A stretch of DNA of 42,984 nucleotides from a virus. The DNA is taken from the IMG/VR virus record IMGVR_UViG_3300009690_000002; one strand, written 5' to 3'. The letters are not shown here. A report on this DNA, generated by a model with database tools, continues below.

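Follow-up and report, generated by a model that had tools for sequence, protein, structure and literature searches.

A hyper-abundant DNA word in a podovirus-like genome

The first and last 123 bases of the window are identical, indicating a circular assembly of 42,861 unique bases, and the window represents a complete genome of podovirus-like type, organised in two transcription arms. The early or replication arm (40172-42984 plus 1-15200, minus strand) encodes a family A DNA polymerase (polA), a primase-helicase, a DUF669 protein, an AAA_24 (Sak4-like) ATPase and a Cas4-like exonuclease, as well as a dCMP deaminase, an SNF2 helicase and an HNH endonuclease. The late arm (15650-40219, plus strand) encodes TerL, portal, the major capsid protein and a 1261-aa protein. 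No integrase or repressor family turned up when the window ORFs were scanned against Pfam and PHROG. No GenBank phage is similar to this genome at the DNA level; the closest by protein is the uncultured Manatee Spring phage ctEqG8 (47-50% identity), followed at 28-36% by the Arthrobacter phages Jasmine, Adat and Brad, Microbacterium phage Shocker and Cellulosimicrobium phage DS1.

An exact search with the strands counted separately finds the 8-mer CCTGTAGG 42 times in the window, 27 times on the plus strand and 15 times on the minus strand. The earlier note had tallied at least 41 copies; every coordinate that it listed is correct, and it missed a single minus-strand copy at 26866, so that its count was off by one rather than by an order of magnitude. 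The 7-base core CTGTAGG is present 66 times (39 plus, 27 minus), and the longer forms CTGTAGGT and CCCTGTAGGT 54 and 27 times, respectively. The consensus of the 66 aligned sites is ccCCTGTAGGT. Positions outside -5 to +8 are free of information, and a conserved flanking hairpin of about 40 nt, in the style of the RSF1010 signals ssiA/ssiB, was not found around these sites. Once the core sites are masked, the next most enriched word in the window is GTGTAGG (14 copies vs 4-6 expected), and ATGTAGG and TTGTAGG occur at the expected level; C is therefore far commoner than G as the base preceding TGTAGG. Single-mismatch neighbours with an internal change are at or slightly below expectation and change is tolerated at the outer positions only, a strictness that looks like the enzyme-like specificity of whatever reads the word. 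Sites occur once per 0.95 kb on the plus strand and once per 1.22 kb on the minus strand. Regular spacing of the copies was not found in the window (the coefficient of variation of the gaps is 0.92 vs 0.96 under the null), and random placement fits.

Base composition and Markov models of orders 1-3 predict between 0.9 and 2.2 copies of the 8-mer, and dinucleotide shuffles yield a mean of 1.58 and at most 6. Shuffles that preserve both the proteins and per-gene codon usage give 12.2 +/- 2.1 copies (largest 19) and codon-order shuffles 8.0 +/- 1.0, values which include about 8 copies contributed to each codon shuffle by non-coding DNA that was left unshuffled. None of these nulls approaches the observed 42. 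The synonymous-codon and codon-order shuffles rule out a codon or protein artefact as the source of the word and bear out the original view that it belongs to the DNA rather than to a protein motif. The same excess over synonymous-codon shuffles is seen for ten words in nine other phages, where 0 of 100 shuffles reach the observed count. The word is selected at the DNA level.

Most core copies (56 of 66) lie within genes. The remaining 10 fall in the approximately 7% of the genome that is non-coding, which is about twice as dense in copies. As had been noticed from the sequence, sense copies are read almost always as x-Val-Gly (n=28), rarely as Cys-Arg (n=3), and never in the frame that would produce an in-frame TAG, apart from the copy whose TAG at 34294-34296 is a genuine stop codon; among antisense copies all three frames occur. 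Two inverted word pairs form strong hairpins, and 2-3 copies lie in hairpins overall. One of these hairpins, at 25600-25657, has a 19-bp stem followed by a U-run and is an intrinsic terminator, confirming the use of the word in terminator stems. Tandem copies at 14394 and 14416 sit in a regulatory-looking region that adjoins a palindrome array. In Shocker, a tandem word pair is found inside the terminal repeat.

Dialects, turnover and the replication module

Counting the word in related phages, as the earlier note had advised, shows it to be lineage-wide and to form dialects, by which we mean variant words in other phages. In IMG/VR relatives whose polymerase or capsid proteins are 41-79% identical, CCTGTAGG is the top 8-mer, at 0.5-1.5 copies per kb and with a GC content of 41-50%, and in ctEqG8 the 8-mer occurs 28 times and the core CTGTAGG 47 times. 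Jasmine and Adat carry CTGTGGG 47 and 44 times vs about 6.5 expected; Shocker carries CTGTAAAG (45 vs 1.8 expected), CCTGTAAAGG (23 vs 0.2) and CCTGTCGG (25 vs 4.4); and DS1 carries CTGTCGC (47 vs 9.6). The top words in more distant IMG/VR loci are CCTGTAGC, CCTGTGG, CTGTGGG or CTGTGGA. GTGTGG is enriched in Mycobacterium phage Muddy (71 vs 25 expected), the Gordonia phages Cozz (71 vs 25) and Orla (89 vs 27), Pseudomonas phage PMBT14 (74 vs 22) and Serratia phage Serbin (62 vs 23), with GGTGTGG in Streptomyces phage Zuko (46 vs 12), ATGTGGA in the Clostridium myovirus CPAS-15 (32 vs 11) and GTGTGGCC in the Microbacterium phages Koji (27 vs 2.0) and Dave (40 vs 2.8). In all of these dialects a T precedes GT(G/A/C). 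The triplet after the T is GTA in the window; the T-GTG version, as in the ssiA and pRN1 primase templates, is present in Jasmine, Muddy, Koji and others. A T-GT word is the most enriched or nearly the most enriched oligomer in each of the siphoviruses, and in the myovirus, found to have the primase-helicase family. Since words of the same kind recur in independently sequenced isolates and in many assemblies, the possibility of an assembly artefact, which had been allowed for at the outset, is dismissed.

Comparison of Jasmine with Adat (88.7% identical) shows that 37 of 47 Jasmine sites are identical in Adat, where flank identity predicts about 22 and only 49-54% of control 7-mers are identical. 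Individual sites are under purifying selection. Over greater distances the sites turn over: 3 of 5 are kept in each of the loci L001 and L004, and 2 of 20 are shared with ctEqG8, which nevertheless retains the same word density. The pattern is one of many individually useful yet interchangeable sites, with a reader of enzyme-like specificity.

In every genome, 60-80% of the words lie on one strand, which is the sense strand of the late genes (Jasmine 33:14; Muddy, for GGTGTGG, 32:8; Serbin 44:18; Dave, for TGTGG, 73:32). From one end of the genome to the other this bias stays even; in Muddy and Jasmine it carries on through regions that are transcribed in the opposite direction, and no switch of strand polarity at an origin was found in any genome examined. 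In the window both orientations occur on both arms, as previously described, and the roughly 2:1 sense bias ascribed to the late arm is recovered in the exact counts (22:11), vs 17 antisense and 16 sense copies in the early arm. The difference between the arms indicates that the bias is partly coding constraint and partly a genome-level polarity. A uniform excess on one strand fits lagging-strand synthesis that is mostly one-directional or of the rolling-circle type.

Only six proteins are BLAST-conserved in all five complete word-bearing relatives (ctEqG8, Jasmine, Adat, Shocker and DS1), namely polA, the primase-helicase, the SNF2-type helicase, TerL, portal and the major capsid protein. The primase-helicase family is also present in siphoviruses and in one myovirus, which have the replication genes in common with these phages but not the virion genes. 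TerL, portal and the major capsid protein are rejected as readers, along with WhiB and Lsr2, by the fact that the word core is common to siphoviruses and myoviruses, and to Pseudomonas, Serratia and Clostridium phages, that lack these proteins; the distribution of the words with the primase-helicase likewise excludes host factors. All ten adequately covered loci without a primase-helicase lack T-GT words, and those loci with the word in which no primase-helicase was detected all end upstream of polA, where the gene should be. Apparent exceptions have weaker T-GT words (CCGCTGTA, 8 vs 0.4 expected, in L018; CTGTGG, 30 vs 8.8, in L057). The words are linked to the replication module across virion types and host phyla. 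We also sought a phage with the RepB'-type primase that has no Cas4 or Sak4, and every lineage found has both; polA, the Sak4-like ATPase, the Cas4-like exonuclease and the SF2 helicase accompany the RepB'-type primase in every phage found. The phyletic pattern therefore implicates the module rather than any one protein.

A natural contrast is provided by Bacillus phage BSP19 and Weizmannia phage Youna2, which have homologs of the Cas4-like exonuclease, Sak4-like ATPase, DUF669 protein, helicase and polA but a primase of an unrelated, DnaG-type class with a CHC2 zinc finger, a Toprim domain and an MCM-like ATPase. Their hyper-abundant word is catCTGCGGa / CCTGCGGA (31 vs 3.9 and 21 vs 3.8 expected), and in BSP19 the CTGCGG-type word shows no strand bias. 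The centre of the word thus shifts from TGT to TGC where the class of primase shifts, and the new word contains CTG, the recognition triplet of E. coli DnaG (PMC2965215). This contrast supports the primase as the probable reader, with the qualification that it represents one evolutionary event between word types that are still similar: CTGCGGA and CTGTGGA differ by one base, which could equally reflect a common reader with a slightly shifted specificity.

A candidate reader and its rivals

The primase-helicase (1610-3274, minus strand; 554 aa) overlaps polA by about 100 nt and was found by tblastn with the proteins of relatives. Its C-terminal half is an AAA_25/DnaB-like helicase (AAA_25, 1.6e-26), for which the nearest solved structures are RSF1010 RepA and the T7 gp4 helicase. 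The N-terminal half gives weak, below-cutoff Pfam matches to RepB_primase/Prim-Pol and weak matches to PDB 3h20/3h25, and this support for the window's own primase domain is the weak spot in the assignment. Its homologs Muddy gp54, PMBT14 gp51 and CPAS-15 gp27, which align with it over the full length, score above the Pfam RepB_primase cutoff and each have AAA_25. An AlphaFold model built from 7 sequences contains a five-helix bundle at residues 208-295 (pLDDT 72-92) and a poor catalytic domain (pLDDT 30-60; TM-scores of about 0.2). The best fold match in the PDB is full-length RepB' (3h20; E 1.8e-3, 285/288 columns), followed by a phage PrimPol domain; these matches of the model are suggestive only. 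The protein thus combines a RepB'-type primase, a helix bundle and a RepA-type helicase in one chain. The primer made by RepB' starts with dATP on thymine 32 (T32) inside the GTG of ssiA, and requires the helix-bundle domain (PMC8567376). The ssiA start is GCG[T]GTGC, in an ssiA sequence that matches IncQ-type plasmids exactly. The pRN1 primase similarly requires GTG in the template as well as its helix bundle, and starts on the base 5' of GTG (PMC2965215).

Our preferred reading, held at a little short of even confidence, is that the words are dispersed signals at which the phage's own RepB'-type primase-helicase begins to make primers on a single-stranded template, CCTGTAGG being the dialect of this genome. 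We infer that the primase, rather than another protein of the module, is the reader, and likewise the position of the start. In such a scheme the helicase part would travel along the lagging-strand template and the primase would read the 3' part of the word (GTAGGt), probably via the helix-bundle domain. The primer would begin with an A opposite the invariant T, and the C-rich 5' flank would be copied to give a purine-rich primer starting 5'-AGGG. By chance, a 7-10-nt signal occurs only once per 16-1000 kb, which is too rare, so selection maintains the copies; it would hold approximately one per 0.95-1.22 kb on each strand, wherever the proteins and coding sequence tolerate it. A spacing of about 1 kb is comparable to the length of Okazaki fragments. 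Co-evolution of the word's 3' part with the enzyme would generate the dialects, and the uniform strand excess would reflect one strand being the usual lagging-strand template in mostly one-directional or rolling-circle synthesis. Several points count against this reading. RepB' uses two 40-nt hairpin signals and serves leading-strand synthesis only (PMC8567376), and the triplet in the window is GTA and not GTG. Known primase sites are 3-5 nt long, so that hyper-abundant 7-10-mers would be a new behaviour; the T7 pentamers, which we ran as a positive control, are enriched 1.1-1.6-fold with no strand bias and offer no precedent. Finally, a bidirectional origin predicts a polarity switch where none is seen, and the early arm of the window is balanced (17:16).

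We judge it rather unlikely that a different protein of the module, either the Sak4 recombinase or the Cas4-like exonuclease together with the SF2 helicase, reads the word as a Chi-like signal for recombination or against degradation. Such a signal might identify phage DNA as self, make a phage nuclease-helicase stop degrading and promote recombination, or load the recombinase in recombination-dependent replication. The strict, asymmetric and G/T-rich words, with 60-80% on one strand genome-wide, look like a signal that is read from one DNA end; the bias is weaker in the early arms, and the primase model predicts a bias too. The retention of density and not of positions would also be in keeping with Chi, as would the association with a whole module that always includes exonuclease, Sak4 and helicase, and the close similarity of the BSP19/Youna2 word to the T-GT words (CTGCGGA vs CTGTGGA) though the primase there is unrelated. 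E. coli Chi is GCTGGTGG, which GCTGTGG of Adat resembles. The module, however, has no RecC- or AddB-like protein, and we know of no phage-encoded machine that recognises Chi. Nor is the word the Chi of the host: the same core is found in phages of RecBCD, AddAB and AdnAB hosts. The density of 1-1.5 copies per kb is several times that of known Chi sites. A Chi-like role also offers no account of why the word centre should shift at precisely the point where one class of primase replaces another, or of the agreement with the T-GTG start rule that RepB' and pRN1 follow. Less probable still are dispersed sites for a small DNA-binding or architectural protein that travels with the module and acts on dsDNA in regulation, compaction or counter-silencing. 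The twofold density of copies in non-coding DNA, the tandem copies beside the palindrome array and in the Shocker terminal repeat, and a weak winged-helix ORF at 13409-13831 are all compatible with this. Stoperators, the dispersed repressor-binding sites of Cluster A mycobacteriophages, set a precedent for dialects that co-evolve with their reader. No such protein is BLAST-conserved across the word-bearing phages, however, and the core is as strict as an enzyme site, tolerating no internal mismatches, while the uniform strand bias is hard to reconcile with a duplex binder. The 56 of 66 copies within genes, the 17:16 early-arm orientation that is untied to transcription, and the failure to detect an integrase or repressor among the window ORFs also speak against it, and leave the stoperator-like sites that had been suggested for this genome unsupported.

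We regard as very unlikely the sites of a phage nickase, which would leave localised single-strand interruptions in virion DNA of the sort found in T5, the phiKMV-like phages and Pseudomonas phage tf. In tf the nicks fall within 5'-TACT/GTGAC-3', likewise an enriched asymmetric 9-mer with 14 copies that contains CTGTG, and tf is a 46-kb podovirus with convergent arms and terminal repeats (PMC3517423). The window has an HNH endonuclease gene at 40172-40588, and HNH genes are found in ctEqG8, Jasmine, Adat and Muddy but are not annotated in Shocker, DS1, Cozz or PMBT14. The sites in tf, T5 and phiKMV-like phages are all on one strand, number 4-14 and keep their positions among relatives (PMC3517423), whereas the window has 66 sites on both strands (39:27) with long-term turnover, and the word follows the replication module and not the late genes. 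The least credible reading, which our data largely refute, is that of a host signature word (an uptake sequence, host Chi, a HIP1-like or a repair-driven word) taken up by adaptation to the host. In their occurrence on both strands at about 1 per kb, their tolerated frames, their inverted-pair terminators and their dialects, the words do resemble the DNA uptake words DUS/USS, and Chi, uptake-like and HIP1-type words had all been suggested from the sequence. The host tests comprised plasmid proxies, unrelated phages of the same host and a hairpin scan across species. In four unrelated phages from Jasmine's host strain, CTGTGGG occurs 2-12 times vs 2.5-8.3 expected. No dialect is enriched in 50 kb of Arthrobacter plasmid or 50 kb of Curtobacterium plasmid (CTGTGGG 7 vs 6.4 in the former; CTGTAAAG 0 vs 0.1 in the latter). 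A scan for the inverted-pair hairpin in one genome from each of 185,579 species gave at least 120 loci; among the matches listed, none is a word-saturated cellular locus and many or most are Pseudomonas REP-like hairpins. Phages of one host genus use different words (Shocker CCTGTAAAGG; Koji and Dave GTGTGGCC), and those of different phyla share the same core. HIP1 is excluded by the lack of a palindrome, the reverse complement of CCTGTAGG being CCTACAGG, and a VSP- or HIP1-like conversion drive was rejected on the grounds that single-mismatch neighbours are not strongly depleted.

Significance and comparison with known systems

The phenomenon is solid and the mechanism is a proposal. If our reading of the word as a primase start signal is right, the specificity of a primase shapes a whole genome, which has not been seen before: words of 7-10 nt would force the seeding of about 1 copy per kb on each strand against the coding sequence, and would diverge into dialects along with the enzyme. 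The lagging-strand start sites of phage replisomes with AEP primases would become directly testable, with an explicit template and start base, in cultured model phages that are already at hand (Jasmine, Shocker, Muddy, Cozz, PMBT14 and Koji). The word would act as a signature for the type of replication module and for strand polarity in metagenomic phages, would call for caution in phage engineering and codon recoding, and might contribute to self/non-self discrimination in replication. Muddy is in therapeutic use. A more ambitious and decidedly doubtful version is a private replication code, in which the RepB'-type primase-helicase of each lineage would start primers at no other word than the lineage's own, of 7-10 bases. 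Copying by the phage replisome would then be confined to phage DNA, to the exclusion of the DNA of the host and of co-infecting relatives. Dialect shifts (GTAGG, GTGGG, GTAAAGG, GTCGC, GTGGCC) would be barriers to replication compatibility that drive genome-wide co-evolution of enzyme and sequence. Such a code would amount to a new principle of self-recognition in viral DNA replication, with relevance to hundreds of sequenced phages including the therapeutic Muddy. Even with another module protein as the reader, there would remain a module-linked, strict and hyper-abundant family of words spanning three host phyla and three virion types. Literature searches of incomplete coverage, using the word strings, primase-site over-representation and Arthrobacter/Microbacterium phage genomics, found no description of these words; the word strings appear only in PCR primers, and papers on Arthrobacter and Microbacterium phage genomics describe only intergenic repeats.

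Among known dispersed words, the stoperators of Cluster A mycobacteriophages are similar in being dozens of asymmetric, phage-specific words that co-evolve with their reader. They are 13 bp long, lie mostly in short intergenic gaps, are oriented with transcription and are bound by the immunity repressor of temperate phages, whereas the copies in the window are mostly intragenic, are not oriented with transcription in the early arm and come from a genome in which no repressor or integrase was found. The DUS of Neisseria and the USS of Pasteurellaceae share with our words a density of about 1 per kb, occurrence on both strands, tolerated reading frames, inverted-pair terminators and lineage dialects; unlike them they are a property of host genomes tied to competence, and there was no high-density cellular genome among the matches listed and the plasmid proxies. 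Chi sites, which are read by RecBCD/AddAB, are likewise strict, asymmetric, over-represented 5-8-mers with a strand bias and species specificity, for which number and orientation outweigh position. They differ in that their reader is an enzyme of the host, whose chromosome is enriched in them; the phage words are missing from host-type DNA, and also from unrelated phages that infect the same host, and track a phage module across host phyla. The nick words of tf, phiKMV-like phages and T5 are enriched asymmetric 7-9-mers, of which the tf word TACTGTGAC has CTGTG in common with ours, but these are restricted to one strand (14/14 on the top strand in tf), to 4-14 copies and to conserved positions (PMC3517423), unlike the 66 copies in the window, which occupy both strands and positions that turn over.

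The closest parallels are found among primases. T7 gp4 is also a fused primase-helicase that primes the lagging strand at words, with a constant start part and a flank that is copied into the primer. It differs in having a Toprim/zinc-finger primase and 5-nt sites (GGGTC, TGGTC, GTGTC) that are enriched 1.1-1.6-fold without strand bias; its recognition triplet is GTC (cited in PMC2965215). ORF904 of pRN1 shares the domain order of primase, helix bundle and helicase and strictly requires a short template word (PMC2965215), but it belongs to an archaeal plasmid and has an SF3-type helicase, its 3-nt word needs no enrichment, and genome-wide over-representation or dialects are undescribed in that system. 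RSF1010 ssiA/ssiB differ from the phage words in being two 40-nt hairpin signals confined to oriV that serve the leading strand only (PMC8567376), where the phage words number 66-90 copies of 7-10 nt, spread genome-wide over both strands with no conserved hairpin and with a priming role that is predicted. They are served, however, by the same class of enzyme, with an AEP catalytic domain, a helix bundle and a RepA-type helicase, which in our phages are fused in one protein, and the start at ssiA places an A opposite a T that precedes GTG (GCG[T]GTGC), where the phage words are centred on T-GT(G/A/C).

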